Assembly (NCBI GenBank): GCA_011524855.1
Contig: WTJK01000062.1
Span: forward strand, 10,983-66,087
Direction of reading: 5' to 3'
Length of the DNA stretch: 55,105 nucleotides
DNA from: Methanobacteriota archaeon
GTDB lineage: Archaea; Thermoplasmatota; Poseidoniia; Poseidoniales; Poseidoniaceae
Position 1 is the first letter of the stretch. Every line of letters begins with the position of its first letter. The notes beneath the pieces are model-generated. The model saw only the letters and a program-made list of their open reading frames with translations. It was not told where the DNA came from and made no database searches. The position numbers were made by a program, and so were the translations under genes. Below, piece by piece: positions 6,355 to 17,833 of the stretch.

Positions 6355-6846
6355 TCACGACATCGGGGGCAAGCGAACGTCGACGAGCAAGACGTTGGCA
6401 GTCTCCTCAACAAGCCTGAAACTCCAGGTGCCATCGTCCGCTCCAAGCGTTCGTGAATCGACCACAAAATAGTCACCCTGGGTGACCGAATAACCTGCGT
6501 CACGGTCGTGGAAGGAAACGTTGGCCCCGATGACGCCGTACACATCAGCATCGTTCACGTGACCACGGATGGGGTTGTCAGCACTCAAGTTACCGGGAAG
6601 AAGATCGAATTGAAGCCGAGCAGGATCGATGGACTGGTCCAAGCTGGTGATGCGAATCACGTGGAACCCGTTGTCGAGGGCTCGAACGCTGACCGTGGCT
6701 TGTGGTGGTGCTTTTTCGACGGTGGTCAACGAGCCTTGAATCAGCACAAACACCATGCTGGAGAGCATCACGGTGATGGCGAGCAGCAGCACCGTAGCAA
6801 TCACGGGGCTCACGGCCTCGTCATCGCCCTTCAGGTGTGCTCCCAT
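6355..6846 (-). CDS. Archaeal type IV pilin-like protein (class III signal peptide, Pilin_N/DUF1628-like)
   Basis: DDEA/VSPVIATVLLLAITVMLSSMVFV is a class III signal peptide plus hydrophobic helix; start ATG 6846 is preceded by TTCAAG at about -24 to -29. Confidence 0.85.
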   Translation of the reverse strand: MGAHLKGDDEAVSPVIATVLLLAITVMLSSMVFVLIQGSLTTVEKAPPQATVSVRALDNGFHVIRITSLDQSIDPARLQFDLLPGNLSADNPIRGHVNDADVYGVIGANVSFHDRDAGYSVTQGDYFVVDSRTLGADDGTWSFRLVEETANVLLVDVRLPPMS

Positions 6847-6909
6847 GGGACGGGGTGGGGCTTGAATCACTTGAACACACCGCTGAAACCCGAGGGAAAG
6901 AGATGAAGT

Positions 6910-10337: not shown

Positions 10338-12089
10338 ATGATTGACAAATCAGCCTTGCTCGGTCGCTTGTACCAAGCAAGGTTCGATGAGTTGAAGGCC
10401 ATCGCCGGCGAACACGCGGTCGCAAAAAACGGGTCGGTTGAAACGCTTCGCGCTCGGTTGATTCGACACGTCATCTTGGACGAGTGGGACCTCACGCCAG
10501 AGGCCATCCGAGCCATTGCGAACGCAGATTTGGGAGAGATCTTGGGTGTCTTCGGCATCAAAAAATCGGGCTCCATCAAGGCTCGGAGGCAGCGACTCTA
10601 CCTCCACCTGAACCATGACCCAAAACAGCTCAACCCCGAGAGTCTTGACGCCATGAACAAGGAGGAACTGCACGCGTTGTGCAAAGCGCTCGAACTTCCC
10701 CTTTCAGGTAGCAAACAAACCCTCCTTGTGCGGGTGGCGGGCGTTCTCTCAGCCCAAGAGCAAGGTTGGGGGAAAGTCAAGAAAAGCTTGCGCAGGCCAC
10801 GCGGTGCGTTGACCCTTCCGAAGATTCACACCCCCGACATCTCAGCGAAGGCTGAAGAACGGGCCGAGCCCGAGCCGACCGTGGCCTCGTTCGTTGAAGA
10901 CAACGACGAAGGCTGGTCGTTTGAAGAGGAGGTGGCGTTGAAAGAGGCCTTGTCGGACGACGCCCAAGCACCCTCACTTTCGGAAATCGACGCCATGCTT
11001 GTAACGGCGCGTCCCGATGCAACCACCTCGCCCGTGCCACCCATGGTTCAACACCCAACGATCGAGCCGCATCACAGCCTCGAAGTGGAGACAGCCCTCA
11101 TGGAAGTGCGCAGCCGAATGCCAGAGATTCACGCCTTTGCGCGTGATTTCTTGAGCGTCAGCACCACGACCAACGTGGACGATTTCAGAGCGTTCATCGG
11201 CTCGCTTCGCCATCATGGTTTTGCCACCGACCTGGCCCCTGTTCACGATGAAATCGCTCAAGCCATCATGAACCTCGACCACCAAATTCAACAAGAAAAA
11301 GGCGCCGCTGTGGCCCTGCCACGGTCATGGAGCGAGCGAGAAGCACTCCGACGTTTTGAGGACTTACGTGGGACGTTGCGAGAGCGAATGGAGGCTTCAC
11401 TCGCCCTCCATCCGACGGACACCGTCAAGGCGCGTATGGCGTTCGAAGCCGAGGCTCGTTCGCTGGGTTTGGACCTCCGTTTGCCCAGCATCTCTGGCCG
11501 ATTGCACGCGTTGTTTGATCTCCATGTTGAAATCAACGAAGCGCAAGCCTCCAGCAGTCCCGATGCGCTGCGTCGCCAGCGCATGCTTCGCATCCTCCAC
11601 CGCGGCGCAGTGCACCTCGCACACGGTGAACGCCTCACCGTTGAGCGAATCGAACGCAACCTCGTGTCCTTTGAGGAGTTGGTTCAAACCGTCCTTGAGC
11701 ACAGCGAAGATGGGTTTGGCGAAGCACAACAAGCGTTGGTCATTCGCTTTTTGGAAGGAAAGGGGTACGATGTCAACACGCCCAACCTCCGTCCTAGAGT
11801 CCTGGCATGCGCAGGAATCGTGGGGGCCGAGCTGGGGTACCTCTCGCCCAGTGAGATTCCAAAACTAGCACCAGGCATCCTCATCAGCGAAACAGAAGTC
11901 GACGCCATCGTCACCGAACTCAAGCACTTGGCTGCTTCCTTCAAGCCAACGACGGAAAACAACGAGACCGCTGAGGCATCAGAAGCCGATCACCAAGACG
12001 AAGCCGCCATCGAGGCAGCCTCGACGGTAGAACGCGTTCGAGGAACCATCGATCACATCGACGACCTGTTGAACCGATTGAAAGGATGA
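10338..12089 (+). CDS. Protein with three tandem SAP/HeH-like motifs and a long helical C-terminal region
   Basis: ELKAIAGEHAVAKNGSVETLRARL; DLGEILGVFGIKKSGSIKARRQRL; MNKEELHALCKALELPLSGSKQTLLVRV. Confidence 0.75.
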   Translation: MIDKSALLGRLYQARFDELKAIAGEHAVAKNGSVETLRARLIRHVILDEWDLTPEAIRAIANADLGEILGVFGIKKSGSIKARRQRLYLHLNHDPKQLNPESLDAMNKEELHALCKALELPLSGSKQTLLVRVAGVLSAQEQGWGKVKKSLRRPRGALTLPKIHTPDISAKAEERAEPEPTVASFVEDNDEGWSFEEEVALKEALSDDAQAPSLSEIDAMLVTARPDATTSPVPPMVQHPTIEPHHSLEVETALMEVRSRMPEIHAFARDFLSVSTTTNVDDFRAFIGSLRHHGFATDLAPVHDEIAQAIMNLDHQIQQEKGAAVALPRSWSEREALRRFEDLRGTLRERMEASLALHPTDTVKARMAFEAEARSLGLDLRLPSISGRLHALFDLHVEINEAQASSSPDALRRQRMLRILHRGAVHLAHGERLTVERIERNLVSFEELVQTVLEHSEDGFGEAQQALVIRFLEGKGYDVNTPNLRPRVLACAGIVGAELGYLSPSEIPKLAPGILISETEVDAIVTELKHLAASFKPTTENNETAEASEADHQDEAAIEAASTVERVRGTIDHIDDLLNRLKG

Positions 12090-12119
12090 ACCGCACATCG
12101 GCGTCAGCATCGTCTGGGA

Positions 12120-13376
12120 TCAATGCCCTTGACGTGCGTAGAAATTCTGGATCACGGAGGTGACCGTCTGAATGTCGCTGATGCCACGAGCGCACAAGTC
12201 CTCGATGATGGCTTGCCGTTGCGACACGTGGCGTTCGAACACGTCGGGTGTCACACCTGCTGCGTTGCAAATGGTTTCTCGAAGTTTGGAGGGGATGCCG
12301 GTCTCCTCGATCTGGTCCGTGGCCGCGTTGTACTTCCAGATGGCGTTCAGACGAGGCTTTTCACCCTCCATACCGGCGATTTCTGCTACTTCCGTGATCT
12401 TCCTCGCCGTTTTCCCGTTTACGTGAAGTCGTGCTTGAATGATGATCAGGTCAAGCCCGCTGAGCATGATCGGAGGGACGTTCATGGGGGGATTGATCAT
12501 CCTCGTGACCGTCTCCTGAGCCGTGTTGGCGTGCAAGGAACCGAACGAACCGTCGTGACCGGTGTTCATCGCCGTCAAAAGGGTCGCACACTCAGGTCCA
12601 CGGACCTCACCAACGATGATTCGGTCGGGTCGCATGCGCAAACTGGATTTCAAACAGTCGTTCATGTCGACCTCAGGGGTCCCGTCGGGCCGTTCTCGGC
12701 GGGTTTCCATGCGCAGCCAGTGGTCGTGATACACCTGCAATTCAGCCGTATCTTCCACGGTGAGCAAACGTCGCGACCAAGGAATGTACATCCCAAGGCA
12801 GTTGAGTGTGGTGGTCTTACCGGAGCCTGTACCTCCTGCGATAACAAAGTTGGCTGGTCGACTGTCCAAGCCTTCAATCCAGACCCACATCATGGCTGCC
12901 AGGCGTGAATTCACGGTTCCAAAGTTCACCAAATCAATCATCGTCAGAGGGTCTTCCTTGAACTTACGAATGGTTAGGGTTGGACCGTCCGGTGACACCG
13001 GGGGGATGGTACCGTTGACACGAGAACCGTCGGGCAAGCGACCGTCGAAAATGGGAACCAAACCCGGTCCGTCACCCAACGGGACGTTGGTGAACGAAGC
13101 GATGTTCTTGGCGATTTGAAGACCGGAGTCGTCGTCAATCCAAATGTTTGTTCGGCACATGCCATGGTTGCGGTGCGCCACCTTCACGCATTGCGTGCCA
13201 CCGTTGTACATCACTTCCTCAAGAGCATCGTCCTCAAACAGCGCGGCCAGGTCACCGTAGGGGTTCGGCTCAATGTTCCCGTCCACGTGGTAAATCGGCG
13301 AGGGGTGGTTCGCTTCCGTGTAGATGGTCACGCGACCGTATTGTTCCAAAATTTGTTCCGACATGTCAACCACCAA
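12120..13376 (-). CDS. Type II/IV secretion (VirB11/TadA/ArlI family) assembly ATPase
   Basis: DGRLPDGSRV, TIRKF, Walker A GGTGSGKTT, Asp box VEDTAEL, LRMRPDRIIVGEVRG, His box TGH...LHAN. Start 13376 (GTG) or 13364 (ATG). Confidence 0.95.
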   Translation of the reverse strand: MVVDMSEQILEQYGRVTIYTEANHPSPIYHVDGNIEPNPYGDLAALFEDDALEEVMYNGGTQCVKVAHRNHGMCRTNIWIDDDSGLQIAKNIASFTNVPLGDGPGLVPIFDGRLPDGSRVNGTIPPVSPDGPTLTIRKFKEDPLTMIDLVNFGTVNSRLAAMMWVWIEGLDSRPANFVIAGGTGSGKTTTLNCLGMYIPWSRRLLTVEDTAELQVYHDHWLRMETRRERPDGTPEVDMNDCLKSSLRMRPDRIIVGEVRGPECATLLTAMNTGHDGSFGSLHANTAQETVTRMINPPMNVPPIMLSGLDLIIIQARLHVNGKTARKITEVAEIAGMEGEKPRLNAIWKYNAATDQIEETGIPSKLRETICNAAGVTPDVFERHVSQRQAIIEDLCARGISDIQTVTSVIQNFYARQGH

Positions 13377-14097
13377 CCAATTTCACAGCACCAAGATACA
13401 AGCCCATGGAGAGTGCCATCCACATGGGAAGCCACCAGAGCACGTCCTTGAGACGACCCATCATGCGGCCAGAGACCCCCACGCCGATGGCCGATGCAGC
13501 AGCGAAGAACAGCGCGAAGGTGTTGTTGAAGGCGGTGATTTGGTAGCCTTGACTGGCGGGTGCAAACAACCCCACAATGAACGCAATCAAGACGGGAAGC
13601 CCGACGCTCACAAAGAGAATGATCAGAATACCTCGGCCCTGAAGCTCGCTCTCTCGTCGATTCATCAAATCGTTGAGACGCTCGTAATCCATGCTGAGGT
13701 CGGAAAGAATGTCACGCAGTGAGGAGTCCTGCTGAATCGCCGTTTCAAGCAAAACCATCACCCGCTGGACCTGACTGGACCTGGATTTGGCAGCAAAGGA
13801 GGCAAGCGATGCTTCAAAGGACGAAGCATGGCTTTCCTTCAGGGTTTCAGCGAGGAGTTGAGCAAGGGGTCCGTCGTTCGCAGTGGATTGCTCCATCATC
13901 GCTTCCTGAAGACCGCGGCCTGCGCCCACCGAATCGGAAAGGGCCTCGAGGAACGAGGGCAGTTCGTTTTCGATGGTACGACGTCGAGACCGTTCCCGCA
14001 TGGGCGGGATGCCACCGCCCGCAAACCCCAATCCCAGAACGAGCAAAAACAGCAACAACGGTGTGTCGTTGAAGGATTCGATGATGCCAAAAATCAC
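13366..14097 (-). CDS. Type II secretion system F / TadB-TadC-like membrane platform protein
   Basis: TM-RRR.IENELP.FL..L...V.AG.GL.EA pattern followed by three TM segments; overlaps the ATPase start. Confidence 0.85.
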   Translation of the reverse strand: MIFGIIESFNDTPLLLFLLVLGLGFAGGGIPPMRERSRRRTIENELPSFLEALSDSVGAGRGLQEAMMEQSTANDGPLAQLLAETLKESHASSFEASLASFAAKSRSSQVQRVMVLLETAIQQDSSLRDILSDLSMDYERLNDLMNRRESELQGRGILIILFVSVGLPVLIAFIVGLFAPASQGYQITAFNNTFALFFAAASAIGVGVSGRMMGRLKDVLWWLPMWMALSMGLYLGAVKLVGG

Positions 14098-14106
14098 GAC
14101 AACACC

Positions 14107-14697
14107 TCACAAACCCGGGTCTTTGGTGTGAGCTTTGAGCCCGATGAAGAACATGGCCACCAGCGTCATCACCAGCCCCATGTTGACAACGCCAGCGATC
14201 ACCGCTGGGTCTGGCAGCGACATGAACGAACCCAAATCACCCGACATCAACTGGGGGACAAGCCCAACGATGGACAAGATGATGGGGCCAATCATGCCAA
14301 TGGAGAGCAAGGTTTCAGGAACACCTCCCAATTCTTCAATGTACTTCTCCACGGCTTCGCTGCGCTCTTCTTCCATGCGCGTGCCTTGTTTCTTGAGGGT
14401 CTCAACCAAGTCGGTGTTCTGTGTCACGTTGGTGTACAGCGTGTTCAAGAGACGCTTGTAGCCCGGTGATTCAGCACTCTTCATGAGCTGTTTGAGCTGC
14501 TTGTCAAGACCGCCTCCGGATCCCTTTCGTAGCCGCTTCATCAGTCCCGCGAAATCCTCCGAAATGATGCCGTACCCGCCTTGACCGATGGTGTGGATGG
14601 CTGCCTCAAGACCCACACCCGAGGACATCAAGACGTCGAACGTGCGAATCACGTAGAGCAATTCTCGCTTTTCATCAAGCAGCCGCATGTTGCTCAC
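14107..14697 (-). CDS. Type II secretion system F / TadB-TadC-like membrane platform protein
   Basis: ELLYVIR.F.VLMSSGVGLEAAI..I..GGYG.IS..F and EKYIEEL followed by two TM segments. Confidence 0.82.
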   Translation of the reverse strand: MSNMRLLDEKRELLYVIRTFDVLMSSGVGLEAAIHTIGQGGYGIISEDFAGLMKRLRKGSGGGLDKQLKQLMKSAESPGYKRLLNTLYTNVTQNTDLVETLKKQGTRMEEERSEAVEKYIEELGGVPETLLSIGMIGPIILSIVGLVPQLMSGDLGSFMSLPDPAVIAGVVNMGLVMTLVAMFFIGLKAHTKDPGL

Positions 14698-14701
14698 CGG
14701 T

Positions 14702-15055
14702 TCAAATCACGTCTTCCAGGAGTTCAAAGTGGAACGATTCGTTCGAGCTGTCGTATTCCATCACGGCAAAGATGACTTTGACATCTCGCTCTTCGAAGGG
14801 GTCGTGAATGTAGGGCTGACCCGTTCGGAACATGGCGACAATGCGCTTGTATTCATCAATGGTCAATTCGCCATTGATCGTGTACATGGTCGACTCCGAG
14901 CCTTCATCGTGAAGGTCGTCACCCTCCTGACCACGAACCACGGTTCGGGTGAGTCTGCGTGTCATGCGCACCTTGATGTCTGCGTTCGCAATACGAATCC
15001 AGTCTGAACTGGATGTCCCGGTCGCTGGTCGAATAAAGAAATCCATTCCGGCCAT
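14702..15055 (-). CDS. 117-aa hypothetical protein resembling the phage tail-tube-like GpU / DNA-circularisation N-terminal fold
   Basis: GGGGTT RBS-like element upstream, 4-bp gap to the next gene; RRLTRTVVRGQEGDDLHDEGSES..YTINGEL...MFRTGQP...FHFELLED. The fold call is by eye only. Confidence 0.6.
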   Translation of the reverse strand: MAGMDFFIRPATGTSSSDWIRIANADIKVRMTRRLTRTVVRGQEGDDLHDEGSESTMYTINGELTIDEYKRIVAMFRTGQPYIHDPFEERDVKVIFAVMEYDSSNESFHFELLEDVI

Positions 15056-15110
15056 GGTGTAACCCCTGCTTCTCCGACATGTCCATCGGGACTTGAATGT
15101 GTTGGCACCC

Positions 15111-16028
15111 TCAATCGGCAGCAACGGCTCTGAACCATCCGAAACGTGGCTCCTCAAGTTGACCGGCTTCGACCATTTCGTCCAGAACCTGCTCAGCCAC
15201 CTCGCGGGCATGGCCTCGAGAAGCGGCATTTTTCAGCACGGTGTCAAAGTCAACGCCTTCGCCCTGGTCGAGTTGTCGAACGGCTTGAAGCAGGAAGGTA
15301 CGGAGGCCGTCACTGCCCGTGGCATCCCCGCTATCATCGCCTTCTTCTGGAAGAGACATCATCGGTGGCGGCGTTGTGGCTGCCTCAAGGCGACCTTCGG
15401 CGATGTCCAACGCTTGCATCAGGTTGAGTTTGAACGGTTCAACGTCCACTTCCCCGTAGTGATTGCGAGCCAACAACAAACTCTCCGGGAGTTCGGCTCG
15501 ACGGTAGGCGTCCATCGTCGGCTCAACCTCCATGGAAGCCGTGAACTGGTTCATTCGCTGCATGGTGGCATCGCATGCATCCAACAGCCAATTGGCGTAC
15601 ACCTCACGCGTGACGATCGATGCCTCTTCGGGGCGCAGCGACGTGTACACCGCACCCTCATCGGTTTGGTACCAACGGCTTTTGGCCACCATCATCACCA
15701 GCAACGGCTCCCCGTCGTCCAATCGCTCGGCCCAATCGTGGGCTTGTTCACGGATGACCTCCGAGTTGTAATCGCCGATCGAGAAGTAATGCAAACCGGA
15801 CGGGTCTCGAATCTGCCCTTGGAACATGGAGGCTCCGGAACTGGTCTCTCTCAATTCCATTCGCTCGAGCAAACCGGCAGCTACCAAACGGTTGACCTTG
15901 GCTCCAAGTTTGGTGATGATAAACGACGGATCGTACTCTCCTGAGCCTTTCTCATGAAGGGTGGCGCTACCAAACTCAGCCGCCAACAAGAGGTGAGCCG
16001 GTTGCCGCTGGATGCGAGGGCGCTCCAT
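15111..16028 (-). CDS. RPA-associated protein / RPA small subunit (OB fold + C-terminal winged helix)
   Basis: RQPA..LLAAEF, P.FIITKLGAKVNRL..AG, IRDPSG, SLRPE; C-terminal wHTH-like LDEMVEAGQLEEPRFGWFR; TGATG coupling to rpa. Confidence 0.88.
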   Translation of the reverse strand: MERPRIQRQPAHLLLAAEFGSATLHEKGSGEYDPSFIITKLGAKVNRLVAAGLLERMELRETSSGASMFQGQIRDPSGLHYFSIGDYNSEVIREQAHDWAERLDDGEPLLVMMVAKSRWYQTDEGAVYTSLRPEEASIVTREVYANWLLDACDATMQRMNQFTASMEVEPTMDAYRRAELPESLLLARNHYGEVDVEPFKLNLMQALDIAEGRLEAATTPPPMMSLPEEGDDSGDATGSDGLRTFLLQAVRQLDQGEGVDFDTVLKNAASRGHAREVAEQVLDEMVEAGQLEEPRFGWFRAVAAD

Positions 16029-17719
16029 CACGACCACCCCCACTGGGTTCGAAGCTCAGTCGCACGAAGTTGGGCATCGCCCCCGACCAAAGCCACGGCA
16101 TCGGCCAAAATCATCGCTCCTTGATCGTCCACGATGCTCCGGCCGTTGACCGTGAGGTTGCGGCCAAGCAAGCGCTCACGAACCGCCTGAACAAAACCGA
16201 CTTCGCCCATTTCATCAACTTGTGATCGCATCGCAGCCTCGTTCATTTCCAACACCGCCAATGAGGCATCTTTGTTGACCAAAACCGCTGCAGTGGCCGA
16301 CCCAGCAGCATCAACCACCAAACGAAGACGAACGTCTTCGGTCCCTTCGTTCACACCGTGATCGAAACACGCACCGTCCCTCAGCACACGTCGACATTCG
16401 GTGCAACGACGGATGAACCCTGAATCTTCGCGTACGCTCACAACCATGCCCTCCGTTTTGAGACCCACACGACTCGGGCCTGCAACAACATCGGTCAGGG
16501 CCACCTCAACGGCGTGATTGCTTAGATCAACCGCTTCGTCCCATGGCGGGGCGGCCAGCACCTCAACCTGAGCAGCGGTGTCCACCGTAATGTCGGGGAT
16601 ACCTTGCCAAGCACGTACACGGACACCTTTGAGCCGCACCGTGACGGGTAAATCGGCTGATTCGATGGGCAGTTCTTCCCAAGCGCTCATGCGGCAGCGT
16701 CCGGAAGGGTCTGCGATCTGTCCGGACCACAGGAATTTCTCGACCCCGTCCCTTGTGAAACTGCGCTTGTTCCACTCAAGGATTTGAACGACCGTATCAA
16801 CGTCCCGAGACCCGTCCCTGAGTTGAGCCACGGTCTGCACGGTCTGTTCAGCCAGTGTACTCAAATCAGCGAACTGAGCATCATGGTACACCTCGATTCG
16901 GGTGGTGCGTCCGAAATTCAGCTCAGGCGTGTCCCGGAAGGAACGAACCTGCGCACCGTCGATCTTGAGCAACGCCCCTACTTCGTGGTCAAACGGCTCC
17001 CATGACAGGAATCCAATGGTTCCCGTGGCGTCAGCGATTCGGCCCCGAACAACGTCGATGGAACCCGAACCGTCCTTGCGGTGAATCTGATCGGGTCGCG
17101 ACGCCAGTACACGGCCGACGACACACACGTAACCGTCGGCGGGGAGGTCGACGACATCCACAGGGTCGTTGGTCGCCATCGTCGTACCGGTGCCTTCCTT
17201 CAAAACCACCACACGCGTGGATTGGTTGATGTTCAAGGACATTTTTCCGTTGTACTCGTTGACACTGGCGCCTTCCAAGCGAACAATGCTCCCTGCGGTG
17301 AGTTGAGGGCTGGGCCCCCAGTCTTTGTAGTCCCAGCGCGTCCCGGGCGTTCCCTCGTTCCACGGGTCGTCTTCCAGCATGCCAAACACGATTTGGCGTT
17401 CTTCGCCGCGAATCAACTGGTCCCGAACGTTGTGTGTGATGATTTTCACTTCAACTTCAACATCACGATCGCTGCCCGAAAGTTCGCTGAGAGCGCTGAC
17501 CTTCTTTGTCGGTGTTGAAGTTCGGTTGTTCGTGGTGGATGATTTGCCGGGCGAGGTCCCCGATTGGAACCGACGCACCACCGAGCGCATGGCGTCCTGA
17601 GGAGGAATGTAGAACTCCTCTTCGTACTTCTTGAACGCTTCAGCCACCTCACCGGGATCGGCATCGGCACATTCCTTGATGACAGCGGCGACGTAATCCG
17701 CATACTTTTCTTCAGACAT
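16028..17719 (-). CDS. rpa: Replication protein A large subunit (multiple OB folds + Zn finger)
   Basis: Repeated OB motifs (GRIADATGTI.F..W; GQIADPSGRCRMSAW), SGFIRRCTECRRVL..G.C..HG, D.RLRLVVD. Confidence 0.9.
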   Translation of the reverse strand: MSEEKYADYVAAVIKECADADPGEVAEAFKKYEEEFYIPPQDAMRSVVRRFQSGTSPGKSSTTNNRTSTPTKKVSALSELSGSDRDVEVEVKIITHNVRDQLIRGEERQIVFGMLEDDPWNEGTPGTRWDYKDWGPSPQLTAGSIVRLEGASVNEYNGKMSLNINQSTRVVVLKEGTGTTMATNDPVDVVDLPADGYVCVVGRVLASRPDQIHRKDGSGSIDVVRGRIADATGTIGFLSWEPFDHEVGALLKIDGAQVRSFRDTPELNFGRTTRIEVYHDAQFADLSTLAEQTVQTVAQLRDGSRDVDTVVQILEWNKRSFTRDGVEKFLWSGQIADPSGRCRMSAWEELPIESADLPVTVRLKGVRVRAWQGIPDITVDTAAQVEVLAAPPWDEAVDLSNHAVEVALTDVVAGPSRVGLKTEGMVVSVREDSGFIRRCTECRRVLRDGACFDHGVNEGTEDVRLRLVVDAAGSATAAVLVNKDASLAVLEMNEAAMRSQVDEMGEVGFVQAVRERLLGRNLTVNGRSIVDDQGAMILADAVALVGGDAQLRATELRTQWGWS

Positions 17720-17833
17720 GTGCCGAACCCCCGTTCAGCGCGTTCGGTTGCCATCGCATGGAAACGACGGTGTTGGGCTTTTGTGCGGTTTGGTGAAGAC
17801 AATACACTCCCTTTGACCTCCTTGGGCCTTTCA

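Follow-up and report, generated by a model that had tools for sequence, protein, structure and literature searches.

A small protein with a predicted tail-tube fold is encoded first in a pilus-motor gene cassette of Poseidoniales

Described pilus modules and the Poseidoniales cassette

Euryarchaeal modules that encode an ATPase and TadC proteins often lack pilin genes, have their pilins encoded in trans and frequently carry two tadC genes, and various uncharacterised cytoplasmic proteins have been linked to such loci (Makarova et al., 2016; PMC4858521). In a more recent description, the CdiP pilus of Cuniculiplasma divulgatum (Thermoplasmatales) has a platform split in two genes, with pilins encoded ~500 kb off (Gaines et al., 2025; PMC12448462). 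Here a four-gene cassette of the same general kind is described from a Poseidoniales (Marine Group II) genome that is 84% complete. It lies at 12120..15055, on the minus strand, of a stretch of 55,105 nucleotides of contig C62 (hereafter the window, to which all unprefixed coordinates refer), and encodes a 117-amino-acid (aa) protein named small117, two single-domain platform proteins (T2SSF_a and T2SSF_b, also TadC_a and TadC_b) and a short ATPase of the TadA/CpaF/FlaI type. The 168 genomes covered by PMC4858521 did not include Marine Group II, and the words "marine group" occur nowhere in its supplement.

The CdiP pilus comes from the same phylum, has a split platform (CdiPFa/CdiPFb) and pilins remote from the machinery operon, a likeness drawn from its description in PMC12448462 and not from sequence comparison. 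Its AapE/FlaI-type ATPase, the lack of AapX and the adhesive, non-twitching filament may be listed as further likenesses, although these are features of CdiP itself and the cassette is known from genes alone. CdiP differs in having two ATPase genes (CdiPE1 and CdiPE2) instead of one, and the available part of PMC12448462 does not mention a small tail-tube-fold gene. The euryarchaeal clade 1 and clade 2 pili (Methanococcus Epd, Haloferax PilB3-PilC3) share the pilin-less ATPase/TadC module, in which two tadC-like genes are common, whereas the ATPase of the cassette is shorter and the cytoplasmic partners listed in the accessible portion of PMC4858521 are not described as tube-like. The bacterial Tad core (TadA/CpaF, TadB and TadC) resembles the cassette in its short ATPase and two single-domain platform proteins; the cassette, however, has an archaeal host and an extra tube-fold gene, and is without TadZ/CpaE, secretin, Flp pilin and TadV. 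Phage tubes and Hcp proteins (monocin MttP, diffocin, lambda gpV, and the N-terminal domains of the Mu and Milano baseplate proteins) are similar to small117 over the whole length of the predicted fold (Z 10.2-11.3), but the alignments show 5-15% identity with no family match, and small117 is encoded by a cellular gene without nearby tail genes.

An earlier note on this DNA had proposed an undescribed membrane machine, a claim that is not supported in view of the pilin-less two-tadC modules of PMC4858521 and of the split-platform CdiP of PMC12448462. It is fair, however, to speak as the note did of a non-standard first component, here joined to a core of the pilus or adhesion type. The new part is the tube-fold first gene joined to a pilus motor of known type. 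In the literature searched, to which papers outside it and Figs S6 and S10 of PMC12448462 could still add, no tail-tube-like protein is described together with an archaeal pilus motor; for Poseidoniales, only a "flagella" operon is discussed in the available part of PMC6461757.

Gene order, linkage and predicted fold of small117

First in the cassette is the small117 gene, at 14702..15055 of the minus strand (open reading frame 14702-15229, read from an ATG at 15055). It is followed on the same strand, after 4 bp (14698-14701), by T2SSF_a (14107..14697; 196 aa) and, after another 9 bp (14098-14106), by T2SSF_b (13366..14097; 243 aa), both of which encode single-domain platform proteins of the TadC/PilC type. 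The ATPase gene (12120..13376, minus strand) would encode 418 aa from a TTG at 13376, with an 11-bp overlap with T2SSF_b, or 414 aa from an ATG at 13364, which is 1 bp past the T2SSF_b stop; the ATG and the 414-aa protein are favoured because the orthologue alignments begin at residues 4-8. Strong homologues of all genes discussed here are found across one archaeal order, and therefore they are not chance open reading frames. The four closely packed minus-strand genes reported previously were thus borne out by their coordinates, by their Pfam families and by the gaps of 4 and 9 bp.

Searches of 201 sampled Poseidoniales genomes revealed small117 matches in 140 genomes (98/99 in family f1, 2/2 in f2 and 39/99 in f3) and T2SSF_a matches in 129 (98/99, 2/2 and 28/99, respectively), while the cassette was present in 98 of 99 Poseidoniaceae and in 28 of 99 Thalassarchaeaceae sampled. 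In 121 of the 129 genomes the small117 match lies directly upstream of T2SSF_a on the same strand, with a spacing between match ends of 7-42 bp (median 12 bp). Three further genomes (G037, G041, and G061) are adjacent by match coordinates, and adjacency therefore holds in at least 124 of 129, a lower bound since the small-gene coordinates of the last five are not listed. Genes encoding RPA and an RPA-associated protein (RPAP) lie upstream of the cassette and a SAP-motif protein gene lies convergent to it; the order RPA-RPAP-small117-TadC-TadC-ATPase-(convergent) SAP was kept in all 10 cassette loci retrieved from three families, two of them cut by contig ends.

The comparison with cassette-less genomes was informative as well. 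In five such f3 genomes from four genera, RPA-RPAP is followed directly by the convergent SAP gene and then by IPPS and GGR (5/5), and exactly the four cassette genes are absent as a block (5/5). This joint absence shows that the small117 gene goes along with the motor genes rather than with RPA, and together with the adjacency in at least 124 of 129 genomes it upholds in relatives the linkage on which the earlier note had built. That the four genes form one transcription unit is the best explanation of these data. No other tail, sheath or baseplate gene was found beside small117 in the 10 cassette loci, where its neighbours are RPA/RPAP on one side and TadC/ATPase on the other.

The small117 protein is of soluble, acidic type, without a transmembrane or hydrophobic segment, and has a net charge of -9. 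It had no match in Pfam, NCBIfam or PHROGs, and the best result of a PDB profile search was an unrelated protein at E 0.43; its nearest named ESM Atlas clusters, P2 GpU (0.91) and DNA_circ_N (0.90), serve as leads only. Alignment of 21 sequences showed R33, R34, R37, E44, G45, D46, D50, G52, E54, S55, F76, R77, P86, E114, and D115 to be invariant, and R33, R34, R37, E44-G45-D46, D50, G52, E54, and S55 map to the outer part and tip of a long predicted hairpin.

An AlphaFold2 model of small117 built from 21 homologues (pLDDT 88.0, pTM 0.75) consists of a beta-sandwich, one helix and this long hairpin. Foldseek comparison of the model with the PDB returned 17 chains at E<=0.001, headed by the tubes of monocin, diffocin, lambda and a gene transfer agent (GTA) (TM-score 0.6-0.66), and comparison with BFVD returned 98 viral proteins at the same threshold, including major tail, Dit-like and DUF6046 proteins. 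Of the 50 rows given by VIA-align, which is independent of Foldseek, 47 are chains of tail tubes, baseplate tube initiators, Dit or Hcp, with a best Z of 10.2; PilZ (Z 7.4), flavin reductase (Z 7.3) and hypothetical proteins account for one row each. A second AlphaFold2 model, of a ~30%-identical homologue from outside the order (pLDDT 93.4), gave 50 of 50 rows of tail-tube, baseplate or Hcp type; the best was the N-terminal domain of a phage Milano baseplate protein (Z 11.3, rmsd 2.3 A over all 104 residues), and the Mu baseplate was matched at Z 10.1. These models predict that small117 folds like phage tail-tube, tube-initiator and Hcp proteins. The "orphan" and "phage-tail-like" protein of the earlier note is hence tail-tube-like by predicted fold, but it is no orphan, as it belongs to a small Thermoplasmatota family with lone copies.

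Motor core, candidate pilin and expression of the cassette

The ATPase matched the T2SSE family of Pfam (PF00437; 1.5e-41, with 142.8 bits where 24.9 is the cut-off) and carries a P-loop, GTGSGKTT, at residues 181-188 that is invariant across 10 orthologues. When compared to PDB sequences, it matched Archaeoglobus GspE (2oap; 3.2e-63), CpaF (8rkd; 6.2e-63, over residues 39-350 of the ATPase) and Sulfolobus FlaI (4ii7; 1.7e-43), and among solved structures it is equally near afGspE and the Tad ATPase CpaF and more distant from FlaI. It is without the first ~130-146 residues of FlaI and afGspE. Both platform proteins matched PF00482 above the cut-off of 25.2 bits (T2SSF_a, 2.5e-9 and 37.6 bits; T2SSF_b, 9.3e-8 and 32.5 bits), and T2SSF_b also matched the UpsF model NF046075 (6.8e-9), under that model's cut-off. 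T2SSF_a has a cytoplasmic N-terminal domain and C-terminal hydrophobic segments at 126-153 and 163-189; in T2SSF_b, which was found in all 10 cassette loci retrieved, such segments lie at 1-33 and 152-184.

Across the order, the identity of the ATPase is 72-87%, which indicates strong constraint, whereas T2SSF_a (39-73%), T2SSF_b (36-72%) and small117 (38-74%) diverge much faster. A P-loop ATPase of the VirB11/T2SSE type and T2SSF platform proteins, which make up a type IV filament assembly core, are encoded in this genome together with Pilin_N proteins, and judged by its sequences the three-gene core belongs to a known kind and is ordinary within it.

An archaellum was considered and rejected. 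The ATPase scored 253.5 bits against the FlaI equivalog NF058587, under the cut-off of 550 and over model positions 147-519 only, and no FlaH, FlaF/G or archaellin gene is present at the locus. Moreover, the cassette and FlaI are decoupled across genera, since genera g19 and g24 have FlaI without the cassette, and g13 and g21 have the cassette without a FlaI above cut-off. The true FlaI of the same genome is encoded on contig C71 (597.5 bits) with a 600-aa FlaJ-like protein, and contig C72 carries a PilB3-like ATPase with two tadC genes; a KH-domain ATPase, which is not a secretion ATPase, is encoded in the genome too. The distribution of the cassette among genera resembles that of the PilB3-like ATPase class (~1e-119 matches), an impression gained without a rigorous count.

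No pilin, peptidase or archaellum accessory gene lies within the four-gene cassette. Genome-wide, three Pilin_N matches were above cut-off, and one of these is inside the window, at 6355..6870 of the minus strand (171 aa; Pilin_N 2.3e-9, TIGR02537 5.6e-8). The encoded pilin-like protein has a single hydrophobic segment, at 17-51, and is a candidate trans-encoded substrate of the cassette motor. Elsewhere, a Pilin_N match at C71:20742-20924 heads an open frame of 4603 aa, which may encode a giant surface protein with a pilin-like N-terminus.

The spacer of 55 bp between RPAP and small117 contains a conserved gap element of 15 nt (15091..15105, minus strand), with a TTCAAG core (15092-15097) that ends 36 nt before the small117 ATG, and a Shine-Dalgarno-like run, GGGGT, at 15062-15066 of the same strand, upstream of small117. 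All 28 same-genus loci (L008-L035) carry the gap element, either unchanged or with a single G-for-C substitution, in a spacer that is variable on both sides of it. Three more loci at the family level (L036-L038) have a shorter core, and A(C/T)xTT(C/G)AAG is retained in distant loci. In this genome, TTCAAA, TTGAAA, TTCAAG, TTGAAG, and TTCATA are enriched 3- to 17-fold at -60..-20 of 510 genes, and TT[CGT]AA[GA] peaks at -30..-26, with 39 occurrences compared to 1-13 in other 5-nt bins. By its sequence and position, the gap element is probably the cassette's own TATA-like promoter element. As a separate observation, the TT[CGT]AA[GA] hexamers look like the TATA-box equivalent of this genome, and their position hints at many leaderless or short-leader mRNAs.

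Contigs assembled from RNA libraries of four seawater metatranscriptome runs (one study), ~92% identical to the window, span 12000-17800. One of them runs from the ATPase through TadC_b into TadC_a (12172-14296), and a second one from TadC_a into small117 (14267-15125), so that all junctions within the cassette are covered. Such contigs cannot prove single transcripts nor exclude carry-over of DNA, and the unbridged parts are uninformative; they are compatible with expression of the cassette.

Proposed role of small117 and its alternatives

The four-gene unit is proposed to encode the core, in cytoplasm and membrane, of a filament machine that resembles a type IV pilus. A hexameric TadA/CpaF/FlaI-type ATPase would drive a platform of two half-size TadC/PilC proteins, and this platform would lift trans-encoded pilins, processed by a peptidase encoded elsewhere, from the membrane into a filament that is most likely adhesive. 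Within this machine, small117 would be a cytoplasmic accessory subunit that docks, perhaps in the form of a ring, either on the ATPase or on the cytoplasmic platform domains. The accessory role is proposed because of the strict, tight and long-lived first-gene position of small117, its loss as a block with the motor, its solubility and the ring-forming relatives of its fold. To this reading as a whole, a pilus-motor unit with small117 as accessory subunit, a probability of about one half was assigned. A narrower version, in which small117 would form a hexameric tube-like ring coaxial on the truncated ATPase, or between ATPase and platform, and replace the N-terminal crown of the FlaI/GspE type, must be taken as tentative and on present evidence unlikely; it is put forward because the fold relatives form six-fold rings, the size of which could match an ATPase hexamer without N-terminal crown.

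Several observations weigh against the accessory-subunit reading. The fold was assigned from predictions without a sequence match to tail-protein families, and a tail-family match at E<=10 was obtained for 0/21 and 0/14 members of the small117 family. Direct contact between small117 and the motor is a point we infer, and a complex prediction for the ATPase, T2SSF_b, T2SSF_a and small117 (10-row alignments) gave an ipSAE of 0.00 in both runs, a value that, with no controls and with a chain number unlike that of the tool's calibration, speaks neither for nor against such contact. A six-frame search of this 84%-complete genome gave no match to Peptidase_A24 (PF01478) or Arc_PepC_II (PF06847); the candidate peptidase, at C65:4726-5697, showed 38% identity in tblastn to a 333-aa protein with a weak Arc_PepC_II match of its own (30.3 bits against 29.9). 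In addition, two RNA-library contigs (X1, 14931-17800; X4, 14913-15321) also bridge the 55-bp gap to RPAP, and the RNA contigs as a set are thus compatible with some read-through from RPAP besides expression, and with no more.

The distribution of the family adds to these points. Lone small117 copies (29 listed, in 27 Poseidoniales genomes) are ~50% identical, and six of the genomes have no T2SSF_a match. Among 401 genomes of the phylum, eight outside the order carry a small117 homologue, with no ATPase or T2SSF gene nearby, and in four of the eight (L088, L090, L092, and L095) the homologue directly follows the gene of a large secreted, C-terminally anchored protein with PKD/NosD, subtilisin S8 plus CARDB (twice) or Big_13 domains. 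The family occurs without motor genes, and therefore its basic activity needs no pilus motor. Conversely, hmmsearch found no small117 homologue (E>0.6) in the loci retrieved from outside the order, six of nine of which hold the three-gene core.

The family itself was delimited by a profile search of 1.84 billion representatives, which gave 74 matches at E<=0.001. Among these are full-length members of ~100-105 aa, with three longer ones (to 142 aa), which share R...R, GDD..D.GR.S and a C-terminal ED; the long multi-stretch matches P0152 and P0177 were dropped as low-complexity repeats and P0188 as a chance motif match. In the family tree, Poseidoniales copies are separated from the distant ones at 100/99, while the support for monophyly of the cassette copies is only 55/32, and cassette and lone copies are not set apart from each other. 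Neighbours of the lone copies vary, and Pfam scans around the lone paralogues returned no recurrent partner. At one locus (L054; G199:C1, 1492-7139) a lone paralogue is accompanied by a UPF0147 gene, by genes for two KaiC-like ATPases and an LTD-domain protein, by a pilin gene whose product is 46% identical to the window pilin, and by a FlaK-like peptidase gene (Arc_PepC_II match at 6.4e-7), the one to whose product the C65 candidate is 38% identical; it is the sole paralogue locus seen with pilus-related company.

The three-gene core extends beyond the order. ATPase orthologues with 49-54% identity occur there, among others in the sister family f4 of the same class, where 7 of 10 genomes have one, and the ATPase follows two single-domain tadC genes in six of the nine retrieved loci. 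The gene upstream of this core is either a conserved multi-pass membrane protein gene (3/3 f4 loci) or something unrelated. Since the core outside the order lacks small117, the small gene was added in the Poseidoniales lineage, and by gene content the core is older than its association with small117. The upstream membrane protein of the three f4 loci (L116-L118) has 231-235 aa and is 53-65% identical among them, and a conserved gene of 321-324 aa lies downstream. Two small upstream frames, of 138 aa in L118 and 134 aa in L119, were rejected as family members, one being spurious-looking in GC-rich DNA and the other an unrelated helical protein. In family f14 (G210:C325 and C98, G220:C40), two such ATPases stand in tandem within open frames of 871-903 aa, which recalls CdiPE1/CdiPE2 of Cuniculiplasma.

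The alternative that best survives these data is that small117 is not part of the motor, but has its own, pilus-independent function and was captured into the cassette unit in Poseidoniales; it might then serve cell-surface protein handling or regulation. Lone paralogues, distant homologues away from ATPase/TadC genes, the secreted anchored proteins that precede four of the eight other-order copies, the core without small117 in sister lineages, and the fact that the invariant residues of cassette copies are largely common to lone copies all favour it. The adjacency in at least 124 of 129 genomes argues in the opposite direction, as gaps of ~4-40 bp were kept while small117 diverged to 37-50% identity, and so do its loss together with the motor genes as a block and the inconsistent neighbours of the lone copies. 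A separate function is accordingly regarded as a possible explanation, though a doubtful one.

The genes around the cassette led to a further proposal. Upstream, on the minus strand, lie RPAP (15111..16043, with its stop codon at 15111-15113) and RPA (16028..17719; NCBIfam PRK07218 at 9.4e-76, below that model's cut-off); 30 bp downstream, and convergent, is the gene of a 583-aa SAP-motif protein (10338..12089, plus strand), all three being outside the cassette. RPA and RPAP upstream at 55 bp, the convergent SAP gene and the pilin nearby, as noted before, agree with the coordinates and family matches. Of the "triple-SAP" protein, one motif passes the Pfam thresholds (SAP_new25, 1.9e-7, residues 108-141; SAP, 6e-5), but the other two repeats were seen by eye only. 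In cassette-less genomes, only the first 150-190 residues of the 583-aa protein, the SAP-motif part, find a match, and the gene is there shorter or has a diverged C-terminal part.

According to this proposal, RPA, RPAP, the cassette and the SAP protein would be a joint machine for DNA uptake or exchange, with the tube-fold protein as DNA conduit or adaptor. Tail tubes conduct DNA in phages, the seven-gene order recurs in cassette loci from three families, and the RNA contigs that bridge the RPAP/small117 gap would be in line with it. However, this RPA is the sole match in the 84%-complete genome, no second copy having been found, and is presumably the housekeeping one; synteny of the region reaches the unrelated isoprenoid genes IPPS and GGR; the SAP gene is syntenic in cassette-bearing and cassette-less genomes alike; the cassette has its own conserved promoter-like element; and the orthologous cores found in other orders have no RPA gene next to them. 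Because RPA, RPAP and SAP stay neighbours in all five cassette-less genomes, the adjacency of the cassette to RPA is positional. Nothing was found that ties the cassette to DNA handling, in searches that did not include DNA translocases or channels, and the earlier inference of a DNA-handling pilus was not sustained by these comparisons; a joint DNA machine is very unlikely.

Less probable again is a PilZ-like small beta-barrel that would bind a nucleotide second messenger and tune the ATPase. The PilZ chain 3kyf_A appeared among the VIA-align rows at Z 7.4, and the invariant R33-x-x-x-R37 resembles what we take to be the first PilZ motif. Tube and Hcp chains nevertheless scored higher (Z to 10.2 and 11.3) and over the full length, compared to 85 residues for PilZ; the motif D/N-x-S-x-x-G, which we assume to be the second of PilZ proteins, is absent from small117, and no Pfam PilZ match was obtained at E<=10. 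That small117 is a remnant of a prophage or phage-tail-like particle, beside pilus genes by chance, would suit its fold matches to phage tails, tailocins, GTA and contractile injection systems and the ESM Atlas leads, but it is hardly credible given the lack of a PHROG match and of any sheath, baseplate, capsid or terminase gene nearby, the fixed chromosomal place across the order, the conserved residues and an unremarkable GC content of 0.55-0.56.

Few archaea in the surface ocean are as abundant as the uncultured Poseidoniales, and their attachment to particles has been inferred from genes alone; the cassette is a second or third filament motor of this order. Type IV filament machines are not known to use the tail-tube/Hcp fold, which has been described in phage tails, tailocins, contractile injection systems and type VI secretion systems. 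If small117 is not a subunit of the motor, the results define a small, conserved and uncharacterised protein family of Thermoplasmatota. As a motor subunit, it would represent a new build of the cytoplasmic face of such a motor, in which a "viral" fold is put to a new use by cells. Should the ring arrangement be true, this would be the first tail-tube/Hcp block to form a structural ring in the motor of a type IV filament, within a family of cellular "mini-tubes" in Thermoplasmatota with further partners.

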